The notes beneath the pieces were generated by a model. It saw nothing but the letters and a program-made list of their open reading frames with translations. It was not told the DNA's origin and made no database searches. This document shows positions 1 to 55,169 of a DNA stretch of 64,000 bases, in pieces. Numbering within the stretch: position 1 is the stretch's first letter; every line of letters begins with the position of its first letter. This DNA is from a virus. Its lineage: Duplodnaviria > Caudoviricetes. The stretch is from IMG/VR virus record IMGVR_UViG_3300031993_000007. One strand, given 5' to 3'. The translations under genes were made by a program, and so were the position numbers.

Positions 1-417
1 TTGGCTGAAGATGCCGTGCTGTCTGCCCGAAGCGCTCTTGAAAATGGCGTAATTCCGGCAGGTAACATCATGGCAGCTATGGTAACTCATCCTGAAGAAG
101 TTCGTAATGAGATTGCTAATATAGTCGGCGGTACTGGATACATTACCACCGAAAATGCGCAGGATCTTGTCACGATGATTCATGACGCCTTTGTTCGTGT
201 CTTCATGATCGTTTCCAAACTCAGCTTTGAAGACGTAGAAGGTCTCCTTGATCAGAAGGTTATCTTCAATGTGCGTACCCGCAAGACAGAACCTATCGAT
301 AACACCGTGGTGCTTAACAGCGCCCGTACCGATAAGGAAATCATTCAGGGCGCACTCAGCGTGGTTGGTCTGATTAGTACCTCTAACCAGTTCATCTTCG
401 CTCCTAAACAGTTCTAA
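1..417 (+). CDS. groEL: Phage GroEL-like chaperonin, C-terminal part (truncated by window edge)
   Basis: EDAVLSARSALENGVIPAG resembles the chaperonin motif EDAL.ATRAAVEEG.VPGGG; C-terminal VVLNSARTDKEIIQGALSVVGLISTS resembles the chaperonin C-terminal helix. Confidence 0.75.
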   Translation: MAEDAVLSARSALENGVIPAGNIMAAMVTHPEEVRNEIANIVGGTGYITTENAQDLVTMIHDAFVRVFMIVSKLSFEDVEGLLDQKVIFNVRTRKTEPIDNTVVLNSARTDKEIIQGALSVVGLISTSNQFIFAPKQF

Positions 418-475: not shown

Positions 476-1222
476 ATGAATTTCCATCAGTGGGCTACAA
501 ACCCAGTAGGCAAAGGTAGCGCCCAAGTTGCTAATCGTGGTGTTATCATCTTGGATCTTAGAAGACGTGCAGAAGGACGTGAAAGCTCTAAGGGTATCAA
601 CCTTGAAGTCTATAAGAAAGGACAGTCATATTTGTTATATTTTAAACTGCTGTCTGAGCATTGGAAAGATCTTTGGTATGACGTCGTGTTTACGCTGACT
701 CCTCCGGAAGGAGTTGATGTGTCGCATGATCGCACTATTGCCAATTACGAAATGAAGATCATTTCTAATATGCCGTCTTTTGCTTACACTTACGCTTATG
801 TAGCTAATGCTAAGGGCGAAGTCGTGGAATTCTTGAAGAGCAAATTCCCTAAGATCTTCTGGGAAGAGAAGCCTAAAGTCCGCAACCCAAGAGAAGAAAT
901 GGGTTTTGAAAAGAGTATTCTCTTGTGTGTATTTTACCTGACTTTAAAGAAGTTTCAGTATATAGACACCTTGGATAGGTTATCTAAGGGCGTTCCTAAT
1001 CTTCCTGTTCTGTACAAGAAGTTTATGTCTTTTACTGACAAAATGAAAGACTATGATGCTAAGAAGAAAGCTCACCAAGCGGCTGTTCGAAAGAGTGGCG
1101 TACACATGACAAAGCATGGCGTAAAGCGACTCAGACAGAAACCGCTAGAGCCTCTGAAGTCTTCATCTTCCAAGGCTCCGAAGATGGCCTCTAGGCGCAC
1201 ATTGCCGCAGAGAGCAAGATAG
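476..1222 (+). CDS. Hypothetical protein with basic C-terminal tail
   Basis: 248-aa ORF with AGGT RBS, between chaperonin and sigma-like gene. Confidence 0.7.
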   Translation: MNFHQWATNPVGKGSAQVANRGVIILDLRRRAEGRESSKGINLEVYKKGQSYLLYFKLLSEHWKDLWYDVVFTLTPPEGVDVSHDRTIANYEMKIISNMPSFAYTYAYVANAKGEVVEFLKSKFPKIFWEEKPKVRNPREEMGFEKSILLCVFYLTLKKFQYIDTLDRLSKGVPNLPVLYKKFMSFTDKMKDYDAKKKAHQAAVRKSGVHMTKHGVKRLRQKPLEPLKSSSSKAPKMASRRTLPQRAR

Positions 1223-1226
1223 TCTT

Positions 1227-1234
1227 TATATTAT
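1227..1234 (+). promoter_or_regulatory. Early-type phage promoter motif TATATTAT
   Basis: Motif recurs upstream of more than 10 gene starts in the window. Confidence 0.55.
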
Positions 1235-1259: not shown

Positions 1260-2834
1260 ATGGAACAAACCGAAAACACAGAAGAAATCAATGTCATGAT
1301 GGAAGCCAAACCGGTGTTCGTGAAGATGAATCTTCATGAAATCAGCGGCCTTGGTGACCAATCTATCGATACAATGTCCTTCGGAAAGAAGCGTATCTAT
1401 TCCGGAGTCTCTGGATCGATGGTTAATGACTGGAGTGATCTGGTTCTTGGGTATTATGAAACTTTCAACGTCAAGGATGAAAACGGTAACGATGTTATCG
1501 ACCCGAAGACGGGAAAGCCTAAGACATACCAAAAGCTGATTATTCCTGGATTTGGAATTGATGCCTTGCTAGATTTGGCCAGCTTCAGATTGAAGAGCCA
1601 GTCCCAAGAAATCAAGAATCTGGAAGATCTCATATCCGAGATTGATTTTGTATTGAAAAGAAGCTTTGAATTCAGCTATCGTGTGTCGGATAGCGCTTAC
1701 AAGATCAATATCGTGTACAATACGGACAATGAAGAATTGTGCTTTAAGCGTGAGCACGTTATAGCCATTCTGGCTTGTTCAAAGGTGTTTAGAATCAGTC
1801 TGCCGCTGCTCCTCAGCTTTATGGTAGACAATCCGGAATTTCCTGAAGATATCAACACGGTCATTTTGGAATACTTCCTTCATGCAATGGAGGAGATTCA
1901 GAAGTTCATCGGCAGACCTGTGAATCTTCACAATAAACTCCGTCGTTTGGTTGAAAGTCGTGTCTATGGAACAGAATACTCTGACACAGTGATCTGGGGT
2001 TATCTCCGTAACCTTGGAACCAACTCTGTTGAAGTTGTGCAGCCGTTGCTTCGCAAGCTTATCACGGATATCACTCCGAAGCTGACGATCAATGAGAATG
2101 TGATTAACTTGTATCACGTCGTTGTAAAGAAGCAGCTTCACTTCATGTTCCATGCTAATATTCCGCTTGAATATGAAAATGTAAACTCTGCCCTTGAGCC
2201 GGATGAAGCCAGTGTGTTTGATACCACTGTAGCCAAGTTCGCTCAGAATGAAATCTATCCGCCGCTGGTGGATCTTGCTTATAAGGACTTTGTTCGTAAG
2301 CTCCTGAAGGGTGTGGCCTCCGGAATTGAGGTTACAGATGATGAAGTCGAAGAGTACACCAAGGTCTTTATACCCAGCAAAGAAAAGAACTACATCTTCT
2401 TTGCTCTATACAGCAAGTATATCGAGGATCATGAAATCCTTTTCGCTCTCAATGAACGTCGCTACACTTATCTGACGTTACTGCTTCACAGGATCCTCTT
2501 GAAGTACAATATGCCTAATCTGGCTAAGATCATCATGAGCAATACGGATGATGAAAACACTGCAAAACTCAGCACGTCCAAGCTCAAGTTGACTAGGAAG
2601 TTTATGCAGAGTATTCGTGAGAGTCATGGGTATCAGGAACTCCAGAAGAATTGTTTCAAGTATATTTCGGAGAAATTCCAGCACAATAATACCCTGCTTG
2701 GCATTCTGGAAAATATTGCCAAGAACTCTAGACACTCTGTCTTCCCGAATGCCATTGGCGAGTACGAACAAATTACCATTGATGACGAGTCTTTGGCTAG
2801 CGAACTTCTTCAGTTGGCTAAGATCATTGTATGA
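1260..2834 (+). CDS. Non-virion RNAP promoter-specificity (sigma-like) subunit, AR9 gp226/phiKZ gp68-like
   Basis: NLHNKLRRLVESRVYGTEYSDTVIWGYLRNLGT and PKL..N..VI..YHVVVKKQL match my recollection of AR9 gp226; lies two genes after the chaperonin, as gp228/gp226 do in AR9. Confidence 0.75.
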   Translation: MEQTENTEEINVMMEAKPVFVKMNLHEISGLGDQSIDTMSFGKKRIYSGVSGSMVNDWSDLVLGYYETFNVKDENGNDVIDPKTGKPKTYQKLIIPGFGIDALLDLASFRLKSQSQEIKNLEDLISEIDFVLKRSFEFSYRVSDSAYKINIVYNTDNEELCFKREHVIAILACSKVFRISLPLLLSFMVDNPEFPEDINTVILEYFLHAMEEIQKFIGRPVNLHNKLRRLVESRVYGTEYSDTVIWGYLRNLGTNSVEVVQPLLRKLITDITPKLTINENVINLYHVVVKKQLHFMFHANIPLEYENVNSALEPDEASVFDTTVAKFAQNEIYPPLVDLAYKDFVRKLLKGVASGIEVTDDEVEEYTKVFIPSKEKNYIFFALYSKYIEDHEILFALNERRYTYLTLLLHRILLKYNMPNLAKIIMSNTDDENTAKLSTSKLKLTRKFMQSIRESHGYQELQKNCFKYISEKFQHNNTLLGILENIAKNSRHSVFPNAIGEYEQITIDDESLASELLQLAKIIV

Positions 2835-3880
2835 TAAAGGATGCTGGCCAATATCTAGACGATCTCATAATGTCGGTGTATACTGGGGCCACCAGCATCG
2901 ACTATAATCGGACTCAGCGAATCATCAGATGCTTTGATTGCGGTGACTCTGACAAACAGGATCACGCTCATCTTGGCATTTCTCTGGTTCCTCCGTTTCT
3001 GTATCACTGCCATAGGTGCGGATTCGGAGGAGCCGTAAATGAAGAATTCTTGTCTAGACTCGGAATAAAAATAGACAAGAAGCTTCATGATATTCTGGCA
3101 GAGAACCGCAAGATCGTCATGACGGCGGCAAAGACTAAACAGCGCTCTGGATCTACTCTTGTTAATAGGATCTTGAATGGAGCGTTTGCAAGTCGAAAAC
3201 TTCATCTTCCAAACTACACTGACGCCGATCGACAACGACCTAATTTCAGGTATCTTTGCGATCGATTTGGTGTAGAATGGACTCTAGAGGATGCGAAAGC
3301 TTTTAAATTAATTCCGTCCTTGAAGAGGTTTGGAAGGGCTAACTTCCTCCAAGAGTGGCCTGAAAAACCAGAGGTTTTAGATGTCCTTCATACAGACTAT
3401 GCTGGATTTCTGGACTACGCCGGACAAGAAATTATCTTTCGAAGGATCGTTGAAAGTGAAAGCTCAAGATACTACGAGATAAAATTCTCTAAGGCTCCGT
3501 TCAGATTATACACTATCAGCAGGCAAGTTCCAGTAGCTACATCAAGGCTTCAGCTCATTTTGGCCGAAGGAATTTTTGATGTGATAGGTCTGTATAACAA
3601 GTTTCCTGAATTCCGTAATAATGCTGTCTTTGCAGCGATGCTAGGAAAGTATCCGGATAGCATTATGGACTTCTTCTTTAGACTTGGATTCTTTGCTCAA
3701 GACGTTATGATCTTTAAAGATAATGACGTGAATGACTGGAAATACATCAATGGAATAAAGAGATTGAATTATCCAAAAAAGCTTGGATTTACTGTCAAGG
3801 TTCTGCACAACGAAACAGGGCATGACTTTGGAATTCCGGCTAATGAGATCCGTCTGGATTCTGCTAGACGAATTTTATAA
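2831..3880 (+). CDS. DNA primase (Zn finger + TOPRIM)
   Basis: CFDCGDS...HCHRCG Zn ribbon; TOPRIM ILAEGIFD and FKDND. Confidence 0.8.
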   Translation: MIKDAGQYLDDLIMSVYTGATSIDYNRTQRIIRCFDCGDSDKQDHAHLGISLVPPFLYHCHRCGFGGAVNEEFLSRLGIKIDKKLHDILAENRKIVMTAAKTKQRSGSTLVNRILNGAFASRKLHLPNYTDADRQRPNFRYLCDRFGVEWTLEDAKAFKLIPSLKRFGRANFLQEWPEKPEVLDVLHTDYAGFLDYAGQEIIFRRIVESESSRYYEIKFSKAPFRLYTISRQVPVATSRLQLILAEGIFDVIGLYNKFPEFRNNAVFAAMLGKYPDSIMDFFFRLGFFAQDVMIFKDNDVNDWKYINGIKRLNYPKKLGFTVKVLHNETGHDFGIPANEIRLDSARRIL

Positions 3881-3959: not shown

Positions 3960-6662
3960 TTATACTACCAATCCGTCATTAACTTCAGCATTCGCTAAGT
4001 CATCAATTGTACGGAAGTCTCTAACGCTATCTTGGCCTGACTCTCGAATGAAATTCAGAATATCAGTCATTATAGGATAGAATATTGGATGCTTTTCTAT
4101 TACTGGTGCTAGAACCTTGTAGTACTCTGCTCTAGAGTGCTCGCTGGATTCTGCTACTTTCTTGCCTACGATTTCTAGGACTGCGCCCTTAAATCTACTC
4201 ATTGGAATATTACTATTGTAGCGCAATGGAGCTTTCGGTGATATCATTTTATAGACTTTCAACAGCGATCGCATCTGGAGATCAAAGAACTTCTTGTCAA
4301 CTTCTGTTGGCAAGAAAGTATTTTGGAATCCTTCTGTGATCGCACGTTCCAGATTATCCTCAAATTTCTTCAGCCGAGATATTTCATCTTCCCAGTCAAG
4401 TTTCTTCCAGTCTTTGTATCTGATGTAATCTAAGACATTTTTATTCCACGGAACACTGTGGACTATTTTATAGACTGGTCTGTATTTGTCATATCCATCC
4501 TTCAAGAAGTACATTAATCGACCCCAAATTCGCTTTGGATCGATGTATTCGCCACTATCCCAGTACCCCGGAAGTGGAATATGCTGAGCCGAGAAGGTGT
4601 CTTTATACGACAAGGCTACCAGCAAAGCATTAACTTCCGCTGTTCTACGATCATTAAGGAACCTTGTGAATCTTGAGTATCCTAAAATCTTTATCATGAA
4701 TTCAACTGGAACGGCTATACAATGAACGTCGTTAGTTATATTCAGCATAAAGTCTTTAGATCCCGGATCTAATTCCTCCACAAATGGGAAGAACGTATTT
4801 AGCAATTGCAAAGTCTTAAGGCTCCGAAGGGATTTGGATCTAATATTGATCGTAAAATGGAAATCTTCCGTCATGGTCTTAATATAGGCACCGGACTGTC
4901 TGCATTCCGAGAAACTGAATAACGGACTCAAGGTTTTGATCAATGCGTACACTTCAGAGATCGGATACTCTGTAACACAGTTGAATTTGGCCTCAAACCC
5001 AGTTAATAGAGATGTGCAGTTTTCCTTGTTAAACTTTTGGAATGGTCTGATCATCTCTGTCTCTAGGAATCTATACAGCTGATTACGATCATTGATAGGC
5101 TTCAGGTATTTGGTAAAACTCTGCTCCTGTGTAACCTTGAAGCTAACGGATAAAGCTTCGGCAGTTTCATCAGATGAGTAGAATTTAATAAACGCATTTA
5201 TAACTGGAGAGTCTAAGAATTTCTTGTAATCAATTATCGAAGAATGGCTGTATTCCAATTTGTCTGATATAATTTCCTTGATCTTCTGAGATAACGCCTC
5301 ATAAACTCTGGGACGGAGCGGGTCTGTACCTTTGCTCTCACGTATCAAAGCTTTAAAGATTCTAGTACAATCTTCTCTGGTGTACTTCTCTTTTAAGGCG
5401 TCATTCCCGATAATAATACTCCATAACAAGTATTCTGTCATTGGCAAGCGGACTTCGACATAGCTAGTATTGTAGTACAGTTGAACGAACATCTTTTCTT
5501 TCAATTCTAAGTACCGATCCGTCAGTGCTGATCTGTTGTCATTCAGAGTTCCACAAAGATTTACGGCGTAGCTCTTAATCCGCTCGCAAATGTCCTTTAC
5601 GATAGTATCTGCTATTTCGTGCTTGCGATTAACTAGATCCAGATAATCTACAAGCATTTTACCAACATCTTCCTCTTCTTCTTCGCTATAGTTATCCCTG
5701 TTTTGTTTTTCTTTCCAGGCTTTAGCCATTGTAAAGAATAATGAAGAAGCATCAGAAATTTCTGTTACGATGTGTTTCTTGTTTTCTGAAGTAAGTCCAG
5801 ATCCCATCGATTCTACAACATCTTTCAGGTTACGGAGTTTGGACAACAGCTTTTCGGATTCTTTAAGGATCGGAATTACCAAATCCGGATAAGCCGTAGC
5901 TTTATCGTATGATGTTATTTTTTCTGTGGTCTCGGCTACAATGCGGCTAGATGTTAAGATGTACTCAATAATCGTTTTGCTGGTAATCCGATCTGGCGAC
6001 TTCAGATACTCATCAAAAGCTATCTTTTTCTGATCCATAGAATATGTAGCCTTATCCACCACCGTCGAATAAGAATTCAGATCGCCAATATCTACCAGCT
6101 GACCGTTGATAGAGTATCTGTAACTACTAGAGGATGACAGAGTAGAATCAGTCGTTTCATTAAGTACGGTAGCAGTCGTAGGTGTGATAGGTACAGTAGC
6201 TGTGCTGACCCATTGCCCGGTAGATACATCGCTCCAGCGCCCAGTTCTTTCGGCATGGCGTCTTTCAATCTCTTCAAGACGACGGGAGATTTCTTCTCGT
6301 GTTGCACGAGAATCTACCATGCCTATCAATTGCCTAGCAGCTTCGTTCATTTCGGATCGAGCGGCTACGTACTCTTCACGGAGTCGATAGGATCTATCAA
6401 GACGTCTGGCAGCTCTTTCAAGTCGGCTACCGTATGTTGTTTCTCGGTCTTGAGTGACCGGAGGGATCGTACTGTCGGCTTCAGTAATCTCATGTGGCTG
6501 GTCATTTGGCACAGTTGCTATATTGCTTAATACTTCATTAGCTACCGATTCATCGTTAGGGCTTACCGGCTCTTCAGGAAGGTTATCGTAAGTATCTTGC
6601 TCAATATTTGGAACATCTGCGTCCGAATAAATTTGTTGAAAAGTTTGTTCTTGGGTGCTCAT
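3960..6662 (-). CDS. Large hypothetical protein, acidic disordered N-terminus
   Basis: 900-aa ORF, GAGG RBS, TATATTAT motif at 6688-6695 upstream. Confidence 0.75.
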   Translation of the reverse strand: MSTQEQTFQQIYSDADVPNIEQDTYDNLPEEPVSPNDESVANEVLSNIATVPNDQPHEITEADSTIPPVTQDRETTYGSRLERAARRLDRSYRLREEYVAARSEMNEAARQLIGMVDSRATREEISRRLEEIERRHAERTGRWSDVSTGQWVSTATVPITPTTATVLNETTDSTLSSSSSYRYSINGQLVDIGDLNSYSTVVDKATYSMDQKKIAFDEYLKSPDRITSKTIIEYILTSSRIVAETTEKITSYDKATAYPDLVIPILKESEKLLSKLRNLKDVVESMGSGLTSENKKHIVTEISDASSLFFTMAKAWKEKQNRDNYSEEEEEDVGKMLVDYLDLVNRKHEIADTIVKDICERIKSYAVNLCGTLNDNRSALTDRYLELKEKMFVQLYYNTSYVEVRLPMTEYLLWSIIIGNDALKEKYTREDCTRIFKALIRESKGTDPLRPRVYEALSQKIKEIISDKLEYSHSSIIDYKKFLDSPVINAFIKFYSSDETAEALSVSFKVTQEQSFTKYLKPINDRNQLYRFLETEMIRPFQKFNKENCTSLLTGFEAKFNCVTEYPISEVYALIKTLSPLFSFSECRQSGAYIKTMTEDFHFTINIRSKSLRSLKTLQLLNTFFPFVEELDPGSKDFMLNITNDVHCIAVPVEFMIKILGYSRFTRFLNDRRTAEVNALLVALSYKDTFSAQHIPLPGYWDSGEYIDPKRIWGRLMYFLKDGYDKYRPVYKIVHSVPWNKNVLDYIRYKDWKKLDWEDEISRLKKFEDNLERAITEGFQNTFLPTEVDKKFFDLQMRSLLKVYKMISPKAPLRYNSNIPMSRFKGAVLEIVGKKVAESSEHSRAEYYKVLAPVIEKHPIFYPIMTDILNFIRESGQDSVRDFRTIDDLANAEVNDGLVV

Positions 6663-17889: not shown

Positions 17890-17901
17890 CAAATTGATGT
17901 T
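17890..17901 (-). promoter_or_regulatory. Late-type promoter AACA-N6-TG
   Basis: AACATCAATTTG, G located 23 nt before the sbcD start. Confidence 0.6.
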
Positions 17902-18013: not shown

Positions 18014-18025
18014 AACATAATATTG
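18014..18025 (+). promoter_or_regulatory. Late-type promoter AACA-N6-TG
   Basis: AACATAATATTG just upstream of ATG 18040. Confidence 0.6.
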
Positions 18026-18975: not shown

Positions 18976-19068
18976 TTTCCCCTGGCCCTTACGATGCGTC
19001 GTAAGGGCCTTTCCTTTGCAAGTCCAGAACATTCGAACAGACTATTGTAAATAAGGAACCCACCACCT

Positions 19069-22427: not shown

Positions 22428-22462
22428 GCTTATATTAAGCTATGTATCCCAAAGAGGTAAAA

Positions 22463-24298
22463 ATGGAAAAATTCCTGTTAGAAATAACAACAGATGGCAT
22501 AAATGATGGAACCCAGAATCTAGACGAGATCCTGAAAAGGGTTATGGACTACATTCTGGTTCCTGATCATGTTTCAGAACACAAAGCTTGTACTTGTACA
22601 ATTGACGGTACTGAAATGCGATTGGGAAAGCTTGTTCCGAACTTGTTCTTCCTGAGAATATTGCAAAAGTATGGTATTCCCATTGAAGCTTCGGACTTCT
22701 TCGATTTCGTTGAGGCCAAGCAGCTTGAGAATTACATTAACAAGATTTCTGAGAAAGCAGAAGTTTACAAGGACAACATTGACCTTGAAACTCTGAAGGC
22801 CGAGCTCACAAAGTCTATTGTAGAGCTGTCCGACTTCACTGTAAAGGTTAACACCCTTGTTGGCATCACAGTGAATTTGTCTTCCCTTGGTCAACTGGCA
22901 GCTAGAAACCCGAAGATCAAGGAACTGCTGAACTTCACCATTCCGGAAGGTTTGGAGCTTAACGATATTGAAAAAACTGTTGACGAACATGTTAAGGCTA
23001 TTAACGAAATTCTGAAGAAAGAGGAAAGTGTCTACAGGCCGCTTCTGCTCGGAGGTGCTGTTAATGCCCGTCAGCTTGGTCAGACGTTTGTAAATGTCGG
23101 CTTGAAGCCGGATATTGAAGGAAATGTTATCCCTGAACCAGTTAACACCAGTTTCATCCGTGGTCTCAGGGGTAGGCAGGACTTCAAGACATGTGCAATC
23201 GGAGCTAGAAAGGCTCTGGTTATCTCTCATAAGCAGGTGCGAAACAGTGGTTATCTTTCTAGAAAGCTGCTTCTGCTTGCTGGGGAAACACAGCTGGATA
23301 CAACTTGTGAATGCTGTAACACTAAGCACTTCTTGCCAGTGGACTTCAAGACTGAAGATGTCTATAAGAGATTCGTTGGCAGGTATACCTCGGACGGCAC
23401 TCTGATTACCGAGGATCCTGAACAGATGAAGTCCTTTATAGGACGGACAGTCGAAATGCGTTCTCCGATTACTTGCGCATCTCCAACTGGAATTTGTAAG
23501 AAGTGCTATGGCGACCTATGGAAATTCAATGTCGAATACAATATCGGCATTATCTCCGTGCTGTTGCTAACTAATCAGCTTACACAGATGTTGTTGTCCT
23601 CTAAGCATCTTCTCATGGCTAAAACAGAGAAGATTGAATGGAGTCCTGAATTTGAAAGGGCATTCTCGATCGACAAGAACGAGGTATACCCGAACTTGGA
23701 AACTACGAAGATCGCAATCGCTGTATCAGATGTCTATGAAGACGATGAAGGTGACTTGTTTACCAACCGCTTCTCTGCTAAGGTTGCTAACAAGAAAGTC
23801 GTCATTACCACACCGAAAAAGATGTTCCTTAATAAGGAAGATGCGAAAAAGTTTGAGACCGAGCCTAAGGAAGTGCAGCTTTATGTAGATAACAATGAAA
23901 GCTGCTTCTTCATGAAGACAAGGAATATCGAGCTTGGAAGCACCTTGGCAGCATTGATCGACCTTCTCCAGAAGCCCAGCCACGGCGGATTTGATAATGA
24001 TTGGGTAGGCATAGCTAACAGCTTTATCGACAAAGTTTCGGAAAGCAAGTTGACACTTATGGCCGTCCATGCAGAAGTCATTCTCCGGTGTCTGGTGAAG
24101 TCCATAGAGACAGAACGATTCCCAGATTGGTCTCAGGATGAAGCTCCGGCGGTGTTCGTGGATTATGTGTCTAACGCAATCATGAACTCTGAAGAGCTTT
24201 CGACATCGTTGAGCTTCGAACAAATCAAGAAGCAGCTTAACAATGTCAAGACATATGAGAAAACAAAGGCGGGTATCTATGATCCGCTGTTCGTTTAA
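22463..24298 (+). CDS. rpoC: RNA polymerase beta' subunit, C-terminal half (non-virion type)
   Basis: Bridge helix GARKAL...SGYLSRKL; RSPITC...ICKKCYG; trigger-loop region QLTQMLLSSKH; GAGG RBS; TATATTA at 22431. Confidence 0.88.
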   Translation: MEKFLLEITTDGINDGTQNLDEILKRVMDYILVPDHVSEHKACTCTIDGTEMRLGKLVPNLFFLRILQKYGIPIEASDFFDFVEAKQLENYINKISEKAEVYKDNIDLETLKAELTKSIVELSDFTVKVNTLVGITVNLSSLGQLAARNPKIKELLNFTIPEGLELNDIEKTVDEHVKAINEILKKEESVYRPLLLGGAVNARQLGQTFVNVGLKPDIEGNVIPEPVNTSFIRGLRGRQDFKTCAIGARKALVISHKQVRNSGYLSRKLLLLAGETQLDTTCECCNTKHFLPVDFKTEDVYKRFVGRYTSDGTLITEDPEQMKSFIGRTVEMRSPITCASPTGICKKCYGDLWKFNVEYNIGIISVLLLTNQLTQMLLSSKHLLMAKTEKIEWSPEFERAFSIDKNEVYPNLETTKIAIAVSDVYEDDEGDLFTNRFSAKVANKKVVITTPKKMFLNKEDAKKFETEPKEVQLYVDNNESCFFMKTRNIELGSTLAALIDLLQKPSHGGFDNDWVGIANSFIDKVSESKLTLMAVHAEVILRCLVKSIETERFPDWSQDEAPAVFVDYVSNAIMNSEELSTSLSFEQIKKQLNNVKTYEKTKAGIYDPLFV

Positions 24299-26174: not shown

Positions 26175-26235
26175 ATCTCGGGAAGCATATGCTTCCCGAT
26201 TTTCAACACTTTATTGAATAAATCCAAGGTAGATT

Positions 26236-31061: not shown

Positions 31062-31207
31062 TTTTTTTTACCTTTGGTTTGAGTTTGATAATCTTAGGCT
31101 TAAAGCCTTACGGAAAGCAATTAATAGTTATCAGGAGTATTGCAAATCATCGATACGGCACAAGGACAGTGGCATCGAACTCAAATTTGGTATACGAGAG
31201 GTCACAA

Positions 31208-36287: not shown

Positions 36288-37781
36288 CTATTTCGTAAGT
36301 TCATAGATGGAGACAAACGCCTCTTTCTGAAGATCGCGGCTCATACTTCCATCGGGTTGAAGAAGCATCAATGGGGATGAAATGCTCTTAGCAAGTTCTT
36401 CATTGGCCTCCTGACTAAAGACTCCCTTTAGCGACATCGTGTCGCCATCGAAGTCACCTCCAAAGCCAGACAGCGTAGTAGAGTTTGGCATGGAGCTGTC
36501 AATCCAGTGAAGATTCTTTGCAAAAATATTTGGATAGTTCTTGTAGGTAGTCCCGAACATCGTTATTTCAGGAATGGTCTCTTCAGTGGTAAGAATCACC
36601 GGACGGAAGGGCTCCACGTTTCGGTAGTCTTCCAGAGGGAAGCGCACCATGATTACAAACTTGTTCTGAATGACGTTGTGGACGCACTTATACAAGAAAT
36701 CTAGAATAGTGAAGGGTCTACCCAGAATCTTCTTATACTCGATGTCCATGATGTTTTCGCCTTCCTGTGTCTCAATGGCAAACGGCTGAAGACGGTTCTC
36801 TGGACTCTTAGCGTAGAATTTAATCAGTTTCTCGAAGCTAGTGGAGCTAATCTGATCTATGGTAGTGTCCATGATCTTAAGACCCTTTCCATTAGCAAGA
36901 TAGAGCTTATAAGCACTAAGACTCTGACAACTAGCCTGCATTTCTGCTACCACAAAGGGCATAAACAGAGCAGCCAGCTGATGCAGAGGAATTCCTACAT
37001 AGCCGTACGGAACCAGCATGTCTTTGTAGGAATTGGCGTTACGGATCGGAGCGCAACTGATAACCGTTCTGGTGGAGTAGTCGATATTCTTGCCGAGGAT
37101 ATCTTTGTGGATGATACCCTGCTTCTTGGCAATCCTATTACGGAAGAAACGGCTGATTTCCACCAGAGTATTTTGGATATTCATTTCACTAGAGTATGCA
37201 GAGAAGAATTGACCTTCATTCTTTAGCATCTTAGCCACAGAAATCAGCTTGATATACATACTTCCGAGCTCATCAATACTGCGAGCGCTATCACCAGTTC
37301 TAAGGTTGATGTCAAAGTAGAACGGAGGAATGGTTATCCACTTAGTTACAAAGATTTTGTTCTTCGGGAATAGCTTAAACAGACTTGTGCGTTTAGAGCG
37401 GCTTCTAGATCCACGGTCATCTAGATTAATCTTTTCGTAGTTCTTGTATAGCCATTCAAGGCCAGTACCGCCCTTCTCATCTTCAACAATGATGCCATTA
37501 TTACCGACAGAGAAGTTCTTTCGTCCGGCAATTAGGTCGGGAAGCTTGGTGAAGAGCTTCTGCATTTGTTCGTATGCAACTGGATGCAGGAACGGACGTC
37601 CGAGATCAATCCAGCCATATTGAAGACGACGGCGAGTAGAGCCGGGTCTGCCGAACAATTCGTAGCTAAATATTCCGTCAGAAGTTGGAATATTAGATCC
37701 TTCTACATAGACTGGATTGGTAATCTCAGGAAGATTATTTACTTTAATAATCTCTTCAATATTTGGAAGATCTAATTTCAT
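36288..37781 (-). CDS. rpoC: RNA polymerase beta' N-terminal/middle subunit with catalytic DFDGD (probably virion RNAP)
   Basis: DGIFSYELFG, GWIDLGRPFLHP, LGKNIDYSTRTVI, VRFP, GGDFDGD; late-type motif at 37799-37810. Confidence 0.88.
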   Translation of the reverse strand: MKLDLPNIEEIIKVNNLPEITNPVYVEGSNIPTSDGIFSYELFGRPGSTRRRLQYGWIDLGRPFLHPVAYEQMQKLFTKLPDLIAGRKNFSVGNNGIIVEDEKGGTGLEWLYKNYEKINLDDRGSRSRSKRTSLFKLFPKNKIFVTKWITIPPFYFDINLRTGDSARSIDELGSMYIKLISVAKMLKNEGQFFSAYSSEMNIQNTLVEISRFFRNRIAKKQGIIHKDILGKNIDYSTRTVISCAPIRNANSYKDMLVPYGYVGIPLHQLAALFMPFVVAEMQASCQSLSAYKLYLANGKGLKIMDTTIDQISSTSFEKLIKFYAKSPENRLQPFAIETQEGENIMDIEYKKILGRPFTILDFLYKCVHNVIQNKFVIMVRFPLEDYRNVEPFRPVILTTEETIPEITMFGTTYKNYPNIFAKNLHWIDSSMPNSTTLSGFGGDFDGDTMSLKGVFSQEANEELAKSISSPLMLLQPDGSMSRDLQKEAFVSIYELTK

Positions 37782-37840
37782 AAGTATTCCTTAGTTATCA
37801 AAGGAAAGTTCTAGCCCATAGGAAACCTATGGGCTTTGAA

Positions 37841-38491
37841 TTAGTAAGTGTTAAGAGTGAATTTCTTTTCTTCGGCTAGATTCTTAGCTGCTAGGATCAA
37901 GCCTTGGTTGTAGCCATACGAAGGAAAGATAAACTCTTTTTTCTCGTCTCCGCAGTGTTCCATCACATCTAACTGGTTAGCCGGATGGTCATCTACAAAG
38001 ACATCGAAATCGCCATACATCTTAGAGATAATCTTTGACTTTGGTTCAGAGATATCTATAGCTTCGTAAGCGAAATCTGTATTCTTGAAATGGTTAAAGA
38101 TCCATTCACGTTTGCTAATGTCTGACTTACCGCCAAGAACATGTGTAACAAATACGATCTTATGGCCTTGATTTCTAAGGACTAGCTCACTTCCAAATTT
38201 GGTTAATGGAAGGCCTTGATAAAAAGTCTCATTGTCTTTATAGGCATTTAAGAACGTTTCTCTAGCAATATCCGGAAGTCCTAACCATTCAGGAAGATCA
38301 TAAATAAGCCTGTCCATTACGGCTTTTTCAAAAGATTCTCTGCCTCCGCAAGCCGCATGAACCACAGCCCAGTTGCTTACCCTATTGAAGATTACTTTCT
38401 TCTTGAAGGCTTCGGCAATCCACTTAGGATCCGGAATAACAACCACATCGTCAATATCACATATCACCAGCTTCTTTTTTGTGCTTGCCAT
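37841..38491 (-). CDS. HAD-family 5'(3')-deoxyribonucleotidase
   Basis: ICDIDDVV motif I, FVTH, K, FVDDHP motif IV; GAGG RBS before ATG 38491. Confidence 0.75.
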   Translation of the reverse strand: MASTKKKLVICDIDDVVVIPDPKWIAEAFKKKVIFNRVSNWAVVHAACGGRESFEKAVMDRLIYDLPEWLGLPDIARETFLNAYKDNETFYQGLPLTKFGSELVLRNQGHKIVFVTHVLGGKSDISKREWIFNHFKNTDFAYEAIDISEPKSKIISKMYGDFDVFVDDHPANQLDVMEHCGDEKKEFIFPSYGYNQGLILAAKNLAEEKKFTLNTY

Positions 38492-38552
38492 AATGTCCTC
38501 ATAAAAAATAAAAAAGGCCGGATTGCTCCGGCCCATTTGTACATGGAGAATC

Positions 38553-39389
38553 TTAGAAGGGAAGATCGCCGTCGTCAGCGGTACCACCCCAGCCAGCTTC
38601 GTAAGAAGTTTCAGCTTGCTGTTGGGCAGGTGCCTGACCACCGCCATTCTGCTGATTAGGAGCTCCACGGCGAGTTACCACACGACCATTGGAGTTACCC
38701 ATCGGCTTACGTTGCTCACGGGCGTTACGATAGTTAACGGCCTGACGGATCGGAATGTAGTCAAGCGGAGTCTGAAGAACTTCAGCCATGCGATTGAGCC
38801 ACCTTACGAAAACCTTGAGCATCGTATTGGTCTTTTCAACGATAGAGTCAGCTTCGCCTTCCTTCACTGCAGTGAGATCCTTGTAGTAAGTGAGCTCCTT
38901 GCAGCTGAACGGGAATTGGGCGTTGAACTGTGCGTTACCAACGCTAGATTCTACATAAAGGATAAATTCATTGCTGGGGCCTTCGCCCTTATATCCTTCA
39001 AGGCTAGAGGTGCGAATGAGGCGGAGATTCTTTTCGTTACCTTCACCACCTGTACGAATGCCAACTTCACCAATTTCTTTGTTGACAACCATCTTCTTAA
39101 CCATGTCGAGGAAGTCTTCAAGGTCAGAAGAGTTGATGCCTACGAAAATGATGTTGTCATAATCATAGATCTTTTCGCCTTTGCGAGGAGCACGACCACG
39201 AGTCTCAGGGAAACGAGGAGCGAACTGGACGGTAGCGAAAGTACGACCATAGCCATCAGAGCTGTAGCCGAGGATCAAGCAGCTGTCGTCAGAGAAGTAG
39301 CTTCCACAACGAGTGTTGACGAAATTAGACTTCTTTTCTTCAGTTGCGTTGGAGTTGGTGTTGTTATTGGCATTATTTTGCTGTGTCAT
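38553..39389 (-). CDS. ssb: Single-stranded DNA-binding protein
   Basis: Gln/Gly-rich tail ending in acidic DDGDLPF; directly downstream of the DNA polymerase. Confidence 0.65.
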   Translation of the reverse strand: MTQQNNANNNTNSNATEEKKSNFVNTRCGSYFSDDSCLILGYSSDGYGRTFATVQFAPRFPETRGRAPRKGEKIYDYDNIIFVGINSSDLEDFLDMVKKMVVNKEIGEVGIRTGGEGNEKNLRLIRTSSLEGYKGEGPSNEFILYVESSVGNAQFNAQFPFSCKELTYYKDLTAVKEGEADSIVEKTNTMLKVFVRWLNRMAEVLQTPLDYIPIRQAVNYRNAREQRKPMGNSNGRVVTRRGAPNQQNGGGQAPAQQQAETSYEAGWGGTADDGDLPF

Positions 39390-39419: not shown

Positions 39420-41381
39420 TTATACTTCAATAAATGACGAGAAAGTTTTTCCACTTCCAATAGACTGGATTTGGAAACCCAGACTTCCCATCAAAGGATA
39501 GTCGGCTCTGGTGTTATCTTCTACAATCTTGTTAAAGTCAATAAGACCTACAAGAGCCTCTGGGATTTTATCGATTCGTTTCGGAATTGCTATGAACTTA
39601 GCGCCGCTCTTTTCAAAGTAGTCTGCATTGTTGGTAAAGACCTTTGAAGCGTTGTTGTATTCAGTAGCGAATTTTTCACGAATGGACTCAAGGTCATCTG
39701 TGCCTCTAATCTGAGAGATCGGAAGCATATACACCTTGGAATATGGCTGAATCTGATCGTTGGGATACATGGCATTCCAGAGAATAACAGCTTTGCAAAC
39801 AGAGTTAGCCGTCGGAGATTTGTAAGCCGTGAAATTAGTAAATTTTCCAGGCTTCAAAAAGTCCGTATTCAATTTTTGAGTTAGTGATGAATAAATTTCA
39901 TTCTCAAACTCGACGAATTTTCTCAGGATATTCTTTGGATTGATGGTGTCTGTGAATAGATACTCATCGTACAAAACCTGAGTAAAGAATTTTCTGGTCT
40001 TAGCGTTGGTACTGACTTTCTTAAGATCAAGGCCCTTGATATCCGGCTTCGGAGTATCGAATACCTTGCCTTCTCGCACCATCACGATAGAGGCATAATT
40101 CTTCTTATTCGGAGTCATCACCAGACGACGGAACAAGAATTCACTCTTCATGTTAATGTGCTTCTGATAGTCTTCCGAGACGCTTAAGCCGCTAGTAACG
40201 GCATCCAGAATGTCCTGAATCATGTTGGCGATGATATTGTTACCAATATGGGCCACTGCGATCTTGTGTTCTTTAGTATTCCTGACTTCAGGATCAACCT
40301 CGAATAGTTCCTCAAAAGTTTCCGTAATGAATTTGCCAAGATAAGCAAACAGAGAGTCAGAGTCAACCAATAGTACGCTACGGCGCTTAAGGCGCTTTAC
40401 AATTTCAGAACGGTTGAACTTGACGAACGGATGAGCAACATATTTGCGGACAAGATCATTTATCTTTCCCATCGGAACCTTAATCTGCTCTGTAGGAACA
40501 TTCGGATCTGTAAAATTCTGGTCATAACACTGACCCAGTAAATCTGCAACCTTATCTTGAAATAAGAACGCTTTAAGGTTGTTTGTGTAGTAGATACGGT
40601 TGATAAACTCCTGTGTACAGGTATTGACCATCTGTACGATAGGCTGTCTATCGATGTAGCATCCTTCCGCACACTTGGTCTTTGTCAAGTAGTCTATCAA
40701 GATTTCCGGGGTGATAGCATTAGGATCATCAAGCCATTCGGCAATCGGATCTTCATACTTAGAAGCATGGATTGCACATTCTTCAATAAATCGAATGGCG
40801 TCGTTTGTACTCTCAAATTGAATATTGTTTTCCATGAGAGCTTCAAGGAACATAACACCGCTAGTAATGATGGTATAGCCGTTGTATGTAGTACTTGGGC
40901 CGACAAACGAATTGGCCATGAAATAGGAACCTTGAGCGCTAGCACCATATTCGGCATTAATCACCAGCTTACAAAGAATCTGGAGAAGGTGATGAAGCTC
41001 TGTAATAGTCTGGTCTTCATCATTAAGATGCTCTAGCTCAATTTTCTTTTCGCGTTTACGACGATCTTGGACGTAGTTAATAAAGCTAATCAGCGGACTA
41101 AGATTATCAGAGTGTCTGGCCCACAAAGTACCATAAGCACTCAGGATATTCTTATTTCCGTAGACATCACCTATTACATCTACGAGGTCACATTCTTCTA
41201 CCGTATGATGGAAGTTATTGTGAATGACTACTCTATTTTTATCAGCAGTCTTTATCAACGCTTCTTCGATCATTTTAGATAGAAGCGGCTCAGCCTTGGC
41301 AGGGAATGCCTGGCCTGTCGTTAATGTATAAAGCCTCTTTACAGAGGATTTATAAGATTCTATAAAAGCATTTTGTTCCAT
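39420..41381 (-). CDS. Family B DNA polymerase, catalytic part of a split enzyme
   Basis: KLVINAEYG (motif B), VDSDS (motif C), KKNYA, KGLDLKK; no exonuclease domain seen. Confidence 0.8.
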   Translation of the reverse strand: MEQNAFIESYKSSVKRLYTLTTGQAFPAKAEPLLSKMIEEALIKTADKNRVVIHNNFHHTVEECDLVDVIGDVYGNKNILSAYGTLWARHSDNLSPLISFINYVQDRRKREKKIELEHLNDEDQTITELHHLLQILCKLVINAEYGASAQGSYFMANSFVGPSTTYNGYTIITSGVMFLEALMENNIQFESTNDAIRFIEECAIHASKYEDPIAEWLDDPNAITPEILIDYLTKTKCAEGCYIDRQPIVQMVNTCTQEFINRIYYTNNLKAFLFQDKVADLLGQCYDQNFTDPNVPTEQIKVPMGKINDLVRKYVAHPFVKFNRSEIVKRLKRRSVLLVDSDSLFAYLGKFITETFEELFEVDPEVRNTKEHKIAVAHIGNNIIANMIQDILDAVTSGLSVSEDYQKHINMKSEFLFRRLVMTPNKKNYASIVMVREGKVFDTPKPDIKGLDLKKVSTNAKTRKFFTQVLYDEYLFTDTINPKNILRKFVEFENEIYSSLTQKLNTDFLKPGKFTNFTAYKSPTANSVCKAVILWNAMYPNDQIQPYSKVYMLPISQIRGTDDLESIREKFATEYNNASKVFTNNADYFEKSGAKFIAIPKRIDKIPEALVGLIDFNKIVEDNTRADYPLMGSLGFQIQSIGSGKTFSSFIEV

Positions 41382-41511
41382 TTGTTATCTCGCTTCATCA
41401 TAGTGTTGAAGCAGATCATTCTTTCATATATTCGCATAACCAAAAAGCTTGAAAGTACAGACACTCAGAACGAAATATTGACACCCACCAACTAATTACA
41501 AAGGTAACACA

Positions 41512-44960: not shown

Positions 44961-45073
44961 ATTCTACCTTTACCTTAAAGGTTATTTTCAATATGAAGTT
45001 TTTGAATCCATGAAAACACTATAAAAAAAAATAAAAGGCGGCACTAGGCCGCCTAATTTTTTTGTAGAAAGCA

Positions 45074-55062: not shown

Positions 55063-55169
55063 TTTGGATCCTTTTTTGATTTGGGTTGTCATCCAAGTGT
55101 ACATCTTGGACATAAGATAATATAGACTTGTTCTGATCAACAATTTATTGTACAACCTATAGGTAAACT

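Follow-up and report, generated by a model that had tools for sequence, protein, structure and literature searches.

A gp226-type sigma-like subunit in an uncultured jumbo phage that may carry uracil DNA

The sigma-like subunit and its gene block

The 64,000-nucleotide stretch of phage DNA analysed here (the window) comes from the virus record IMGVR_UViG_3300031993_000007 and carries, at 1260-2834 on the plus strand, an open reading frame (ORF) for a 524-aa sigma-like promoter-specificity subunit of a non-virion RNA polymerase (nvRNAP), of the type represented by gp226 of phage AR9. The window corresponds to bases 17680-81679 of the record, reverse-complemented; the record is 259,448 bp long, has 127-bp direct terminal repeats and is rated complete. 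Residues 118-491 of the ORF product matched gp226 in the AR9 nvRNAP holoenzyme (PDB 7S01_A, chain A; E 1.7e-16), and the protein matched phrog_25005 ('RNA polymerase') with E 1.4e-21; a megablast search of the ORF against phage records gave no match. An AlphaFold2 (AF2) model built from 85 homologues had a mean predicted local distance difference test score (pLDDT) of 89, and its best fold matches in PDB were 7UM0_A (E 4.5e-14) and 7S01_A (E 1.1e-13), both with prob 1.0. The template-modelling (TM) scores against these two were 0.44-0.50 over the whole chain, and the score against 7UM1_A was 0.72 across 173 residues. The next match was gp68 of phage phiKZ (8QUE_B, Foldseek E 4e-4). We rejected the ideas that the ORF encodes a bacterial sigma factor or is a helical ORF arising by chance, as the fold and sequence matches were specific to gp226 and gp68. 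The identification of the ORF product as a genuine homologue of AR9 gp226 is thus secure, and by analogy it is predicted to confer promoter-specific initiation on the core enzyme.

An earlier reading made from the sequence alone (the sequence-only reading) had singled out the motif YSDTVIWGY at 1977-2003 (plus strand), and the motif is indeed encoded there, as residues 240-248 in the 2.1bis helix. In an ungapped alignment with AR9, phiR1-37 and LPJP1, the core TEYSDTVIWGYLRNLGT lies over AR9 TKYSDVVIWTYLKNMST, with YSDTVIWGY facing YSDVVIWTY. Since no gaps intervene, V206, I207, W208 and Y210 of AR9 correspond to V244, I245, W246 and Y248 here, and these V, I, W and Y columns were invariant in the four-way alignment of this protein with AR9 gp226, phiR1-37 g245 and the LPJP1 homologue. 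The same four residues were kept in all seven closest relatives (P0004-P0010), all of which have the valine. In the AF2 model, residues 240-251 form a short helix between two long helices. The suggested comparison with gp226 was therefore borne out by alignment and fold alike, and the Val, Ile and Tyr equivalents described as intact (V244, I245 and Y248) are identical to those in AR9.

The importance of these residues follows from the AR9 structures. The template-strand uracil at -10 is wedged between I207 of gp226 and R363 of the beta-N subunit, and receives hydrogen bonds from K375 of beta-N and from the V206 and I207 main chain (PMC9209446). Its C5 atom lies 3.9 Å from the C-beta of V206, which excludes the methyl group of thymine, just as the sequence-only reading had stated; a V206G substitution relieves the block at -10 and renders U and T promoters equivalent (PMC9209446). 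Y210 stacks on the G at -9, and T at -11 is excluded by the backbone and conformation of the bound DNA itself, with no side chain involved (PMC9209446). Accordingly, a T at either -11 or -10 abolishes transcription by the AR9 enzyme (PMC5449584).

The sigma-like gene is located in a block that begins with the gene for a GroEL-like chaperonin, of which the window contains the 3' end (1-417, plus strand; full gene at 81263-83005 of the genome), and continues with a homologue of AR9 g227 and phiR1-37 g244 (476-1222, plus strand), the sigma-like gene itself and a DNA primase gene (2831-3880, plus strand), the start of which overlaps the sigma-like gene stop. The full chaperonin gene matched the AR9 GroEL g228 region (E 1e-63). 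The 476-1222 product matched phrog_20045 (E 7e-39) and, by tblastn, AR9 g227 (E 1e-30) and phiR1-37 g244 (E 4.5e-13), while the primase matched phrog_19847 (E 7e-36), the AR9 g225 region and phiR1-37 g247. The block has the same order in AR9, from g228 to g225. In phiR1-37 it runs g243, g244, g245 and then, after a small extra gene (g246), g247, and in a 43%-identical metagenomic relative (L042) the order is again the same, with a small extra gene before the sigma-like gene. Directly past the primase, a 900-aa ORF (3960-6662, minus strand) had neither a PHROG match nor a homologue in AR9 or phiR1-37 at E 1e-4.

Genes for partner subunits of the polymerase were also found. The nvRNAP beta-N subunit (255948-257456 of the genome) matched chain c of 7S00 with E 1.5e-74, and both R363 and N382 were kept. 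The gene for nvRNAP beta'-C, a homologue of AR9 g154, is located at 22442-24298 on the plus strand (tblastn to AR9 127979-129697, E 1e-95).

Promoters and the dTMP phosphatase orthologue

The core of an early-type promoter, TATATTAT, was read at 1227-1234 (plus strand), 33 nt 5' of the ATG of the sigma-like gene, and in AR9 the corresponding position before g226 is annotated with an early promoter, AAATATATATTAT. TATATTA was also present 11 nt 5' of the beta'-C gene, as an early-type promoter, and 34 of its 59 copies in the genome are intergenic. The position of TATATTAT before the sigma-like gene fits the expectation that nvRNAP genes are early genes.

The late promoter of AR9 has the consensus A(-11)ACA-N6-T(A/G)(+1) (PMC5449584), and the sequence-only reading had pointed to many AAC[A/T]-N6-TG motifs in the window. 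Their abundance carried no information, since the 76 copies of the loose motif equal the number expected by chance (75.8 +/- 8.8), and we therefore turned to position and orientation. For this analysis, we called 271 genes and examined intergenic DNA across the genome. A tighter motif, AACW-N4-ATTG, occurred 27 times in promoter orientation and twice in the opposite orientation, compared with 1.8 +/- 1.4 in shuffled sequences. In an unbiased scan of pairs of 3-mers separated by a gap, the top pairs were AAC-N5-ATT (41 versus 6.8 expected) and AAC-N6-TTG (43 versus 7.6), and AAC-N5-ATTR was 63% intergenic as against 9.8% of all bases. Most AACW-N4-ATTG sites were located 20-45 nt 5' of start codons, often with an AGGA-type ribosome-binding site after the motif, and their geometry is that of AR9, with AAC at -11 to -9, W at -8 and T-G at -1/+1. 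Thus, what stood of the earlier claim was this tighter motif, which as a sequence signal is securely a late promoter with AR9 spacing.

Among annotated genes, the best example is AACTTTCCTTTG at 37799-37810 (minus strand), 29 nt 5' of the gene for the virion RNA polymerase beta'-N piece (36288-37781, minus strand), a late gene homologous to AR9 g145 (tblastn E 9e-76) with a weak Pfam match to RNA_pol_Rpb1_2. Further AACW-N4-ATTG promoters were found in the window at 18014-18025, 19036-19047, 26205-26216 and 55139-55150 on the plus strand, and at 17890-17901, 31118-31129 and 44989-45000 on the minus strand. The motif was present at the same places in a sister genome (L044), including the site before virion beta'-N, and, in a more distant relative, before the gene for the prohead protease. 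The region upstream of the DNA polymerase gene (41400-41445, minus strand) contains neither a clean TATATTA nor AAC...ATTG; its near-early element, AATATATGAAAG, may represent a third (middle) class of promoter.

This polymerase gene (39420-41381, minus strand) encodes the catalytic subunit of a divergent family B DNA polymerase, a homologue of AR9 g152 (Pfam divDNApol, E 7.7e-29; tblastn to AR9, E 2.8e-88). Downstream lie a putative single-stranded DNA-binding (SSB)-like gene (38553-39389, minus strand), the product of which has an acidic tail, DDGDLPF, and a weak match next to phiR1-37 g177, and then a gene for a 216-aa NT5C-like deoxyribonucleotidase of the HAD family (37841-38491, minus strand), which is followed by virion beta'-N. 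The sequence-only reading had likewise placed a HAD nucleotidase beside the polymerase and SSB genes. The HAD gene occupies the corresponding block, 3' of the divergent polymerase gene, in both AR9 and the sister genome, and in this phage and the sister the SSB-like gene stands between the two. A GC-rich hairpin, GGCCGGAGCAATCCGGCC, followed by a run of T is located between the SSB-like and HAD genes (38505-38540, minus strand), and for this reason the nucleotidase may not be simply co-transcribed with the polymerase and SSB genes.

The start of the HAD protein was set at MASTKK rather than at an upstream GTG, because five relatives are 215-216 aa long. The protein and AR9 g151 were reciprocal best hits (phmmer E 7.6e-9 and 3.4e-8; BLASTP E 3e-10 over about 200 residues), and it was also the reciprocal best hit of phiR1-37 g177. 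The termini of AR9 g151, MFSIKEP...TEEKAV, are exactly those specified by the cloning primers for Dtm_PBS1, a phosphatase shown in a 2025 study to prefer dTMP (PMC12697855). Motif I (DIDDV here, DCDEV in g151) and motif IV (VDD, within FVDD here, and VED) are both kept, with DxD and DD intact, and the structural neighbours of the protein in ESM-Atlas were NT5C clusters (TM 0.65-0.69). Profile searches were less informative: the best Pfam match, to DUF2608, was not significant (E 0.17), AR9 g151 itself reached HAD Hydrolase only with E 0.045, PF06941 (NT5C) had zero matches in this genome, AR9, phiR1-37 and LPJP1, and a PDB sequence search with the HAD protein returned spurious repeats only. 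An AF2 model from a 6-sequence alignment was poor (pLDDT 49.5) and was not used for fold searches. The HAD protein is an orthologue of Dtm_PBS1, and its activity as a dTMP phosphatase is predicted from this orthology. We also observed that phiR1-37 g177 (AJ972879.2, 121220-121822) is a clear homologue of AR9 g151 (phmmer E 5.9e-14). It comes in addition to the dTTP pyrophosphatase characterised in PMC12697855, the available part of which contains no mention of g177 that we could find.

Phylogenetic range, nucleotide metabolism and the base in the DNA

To place the phage, we searched 50,697 phage records by tblastn with AR9 gp226 and AR9 Dtm (E 1e-3) and with the beta-N subunit of this phage (E 1e-5). 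Each query recovered 21 records, and by accession these were the same 21: seven of the PBS1/AR9 group, BpSp, LPJP1, ten Staphylococcus jumbo phages and two phiR1-37 records. Most of them are listed as uracil-DNA phages or as phages with the characteristics of such phages (PMC10303552). The sigma-like protein of this phage reached 10 of the 21 at E 1e-5. Six protein families have been described as exclusive to uracil-DNA phages, namely those of phiR1-37 g196, g207, g234, g244 and g278/g282 (PMC10303552), and tblastn found homologues of all six, with a weak match for g196 (E 1.9e-6). The g244 family is represented by the 476-1222 gene next to the sigma-like gene (PMC10303552, Table 3), and the g207, g234 and g278-pair families by genome ORFs at 96749-99619, 203231-206011 and 176334-177793, respectively. 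About 63 predicted proteins had homologues in AR9 and 54 in phiR1-37 (tblastn). The phage is roughly equidistant from these two, with about 30-34% identity in beta-N, and represents a new deep lineage, that of an uncultured 259-kb jumbo phage, within the clade of PBS1/AR9, Staphylococcus jumbo, LPJP1 and phiR1-37 phages. Its G+C content is 42.4%, clearly above the 27.75% of AR9 (72.25% A+U; PMC5449584), as the sequence-only reading had noted.

We examined the genes for nucleotide metabolism by running Pfam models against six-frame translations of this genome and of three control genomes (AR9, phiR1-37 and LPJP1). ThyA (PF00303), ThyX (PF02511), dUTPase (PF00692), thymidylate kinase and uracil-DNA glycosylase were absent from the complete genome and from all three controls, so the expected lack of thymidylate synthase and dUTPase was observed. 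The two other expected genes were not found. PBS1 and phiR1-37 have a dCTP deaminase (Dcd) of the cytidine-deaminase family (PMC12697855). Pfam detected this family (PF00383) in AR9, phiR1-37 and LPJP1 and not in this genome, where the dUTPase-fold DCD (PF22769) had no match either, so that neither fold of the deaminase is represented. A regular-expression search for the zinc motif recovered the AR9 and phiR1-37 deaminases and nothing relevant in this genome. A search for a Ugi-like gene with the AR9 Ugi ORF gave a best E of 0.94. In LPJP1, the Dcd region (MZ422438.1, ~5330-5760; L007:1410-1917, minus strand) is frameshifted, with the HAE and PCxxC motifs in two overlapping ORFs, which reflects either a sequencing error or the dispensability of Dcd in a phage reported to have uracil DNA.

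A class III ribonucleotide reductase, NrdD, was found in this genome and in none of the three control phages, and reductases of classes I and II were absent here. Pfam placed the ATP-cone and N-terminal half at 111094-112542 and the C-terminal half with the glycyl-radical domain at 113775-114668 of the genome. An insert of about 1.2 kb, which carries a gene for a GIY-YIG homing endonuclease (112846-113499), interrupts the reductase gene (111094-114668) precisely at position 280/281 of the Pfam model. Rfam returned no catalogued intron, so the gene either contains an uncatalogued intron or is truly split. Class III reductases act on nucleoside triphosphates. Reduction of UTP to dUTP would thus be a direct route that needs no deaminase.

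Taken together, these features suggest the following scheme. The 1260-2834 product would be the promoter-specificity subunit of a five-subunit nvRNAP of the AR9 type, which would read 3'-UUG-5' in the template strand opposite AAC. The -10 base would be held by V244, I245 and beta-N R363 in a pocket that would leave no room for the methyl group of thymine, and for this reason late transcription, and hence the genome, would use deoxyuridine (dU). The phage NrdD would reduce UTP directly to dUTP, with neither a dUTPase nor a thymidylate synthase of the phage to divert it, and the Dtm-type HAD phosphatase would drain dTMP. Uracil DNA is favoured by the clade to which the phage belongs, by the pocket residues bar one, by a promoter geometry that in AR9 excludes T at -11, by Dtm and by the lack of a phage-encoded route to dTTP. 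On this basis, we consider it probable that the ORF encodes the sigma-like subunit of an AR9-type nvRNAP in a phage in which dU replaces deoxythymidine.

Several observations weigh against this conclusion. The chemistry of the bases cannot be read from an assembled sequence, and the lack of thymidylate synthase and dUTPase genes is also common in thymine-DNA phages. Neither a deaminase nor a Ugi homologue was found; phiR1-37, the Staphylococcus phages and LPJP1 are likewise without a recognisable Ugi, as are most dU phages outside Bacillus (PMC10303552). The beta-N lysine that bonds the -10 uracil in AR9, K375, aligns to an isoleucine, with a lysine at -1 and an arginine at +2 from it; phiR1-37 beta-N has an arginine at this position. 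The phage branches deeply and lies at about the same distance from AR9 and from phiR1-37. Because the beta-N search at E 1e-5 recovered no outgroup with which to root a tree, its ancestors may not have had uracil DNA. Finally, the gp226 family itself is diverse. A search of 1.84 billion representative proteins (E <= 1e-3, clustered at 50% identity) yielded 184 members (metagenomic family proteins P0012-P0158), compared with the twelve in GenBank cited in 2022. Of 156 members aligned at the V206 column, 93 had Val, 11 Thr, 9 Ile, 7 Lys, 6 Gly, 4 Pro and 4 Ala, while the column of W246 was nearly invariant. Because valine is common yet not universal in the wider family, it is not diagnostic on its own, and judged by these residues the family is not uniformly U-specific. 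The members with Gly, Ala, Pro or Thr (about 25 of the 156) are natural analogues of the engineered V206G variant.

These points would be accommodated if the DNA contained thymine, or were substituted in part, with a pocket that tolerates a 5-methyl group, a HAD protein that acts as a general deoxynucleotidase and dTTP supplied by the host. In favour of this explanation, no dCTP deaminase of either fold was found, in contrast to the characterised dU phages (PMC12697855). The lack of K375 and the variation at the V206 position also fit it, as do different side chains at the residues that in AR9 make main-chain contacts with the -9 G (F261, K262, Y263) and at S245/Y246. NT5C-like nucleotidases are moreover widespread among phages, and ordinary metagenomes have repeatedly yielded assemblies of this genome. 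However, V244, I245, W246, Y248 and R363 are all kept, and the exclusion of T at -11 in AR9 stems from DNA conformation (PMC9209446); the spacing between AAC and the start site is unchanged here. Among the phage records searched by tblastn at E 1e-3, homologues of AR9 gp226 and Dtm were confined to the 21 of the uracil-DNA group, and an enzyme orthologous to a phosphatase that prefers dTMP would be of no use to a phage that needs dTTP and encodes neither a thymidylate synthase nor a thymidylate kinase. We therefore regard thymine or partly substituted DNA as unlikely, though well short of negligible. Replacement of thymine by another 5-substituted pyrimidine, such as 5-hydroxymethyl-dU or a hypermodified derivative, seems highly improbable: a dTMP-depleting phosphatase would also suit phages that exclude T by means of other bases, as is generally known of phages with 5-hydroxymethyl-dU, but the genome lacks a hydroxymethylase of the ThyA family, and from the structural logic of PMC9209446 a 5-substituent would clash with V244 even more than a methyl group.

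In summary, the suggestion that the genome uses dU in place of thymine is supported by the pocket residues, the promoters, Dtm and the absence of thymidylate synthase and dUTPase genes, and is weakened by the missing Dcd and Ugi and by the lack of K375. We infer from the sequences that uracil DNA is likely, albeit unproven. A bolder proposal, towards which we are inclined to be sceptical, is that the DNA is fully substituted without a dCTP deaminase, by reduction of UTP to dUTP by NrdD and removal of dTMP by Dtm, and that the gp226 family marks a much larger hidden population of uracil-DNA and 'reverted' phages. If so, the phage would follow a third way of making uracil DNA, one without a deaminase, and would be the first with uracil DNA from a strictly anaerobic gut ecosystem.

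Comparison with known systems

The uracil-DNA phages named in the cited literature are the PBS1/AR9, Staphylococcus jumbo, LPJP1 and phiR1-37 phages and the roseophage DSS3_VP1. If the phage described here has uracil DNA, the trait extends to uncultured viruses of the gut or rumen, and dCTP deaminase, which PMC12697855 regards as an element common to dU-DNA synthesis, would not be needed in phages with a class III reductase. High-fidelity polymerases of the archaeal type stall on dU (PMC2995087), and uracil-DNA phages are for this reason perhaps under-counted in amplified viromes. The large gp226 family also provides natural variants of the residue that discriminates between U and T, with which the published V206G result could be tested.

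Among the systems compared is the jumbo phage phiKZ, in which the sigma-like subunit gp68 (8QUE_B) shares with the ORF product its overall fold and its role in an nvRNAP of split subunits. There is no detectable sequence similarity between the two, and the ORF is far closer to gp226. The DNA of phiKZ contains thymine, and the AR9 nvRNAP fails to transcribe it (PMC9209446, PMC5449584). Yersinia phage phiR1-37 offers a further comparison: its g245 is a gp226 homologue with YSDQVIW in the same gene block, its g177 is Dtm-like, and it too has no recognisable Ugi and no ThyA, ThyX or dUTPase. It differs in having Dcd (G4KK42) and a dTTP pyrophosphatase, Dtt (G4KK39), neither of which has a homologue here.

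Compared with gp226 of Bacillus phage AR9, identity is about 32% and limited to the central 200 residues, and the N-terminal domain is 60 aa longer here. The promoter differs in that the -8 base is A or T and that an additional AT is conserved at -3/-2. K375 of beta-N is replaced, a class III reductase is present in place of a class I enzyme, Dcd and Ugi are missing, and the G+C content is 42% rather than 28% in a phage that is uncultured. The phage shares with AR9/PBS1 gp226 (7S01, 7UM0, 7UM1) a sigma2-like core with V, I, W and Y in the 2.1bis helix. It also has in common with AR9 the gene block with an early promoter before the sigma-like gene, the split beta and beta' partners, the spacing of AAC at -11 to -9 and a Dtm phosphatase gene placed downstream of the divergent DNA polymerase gene within the same block.

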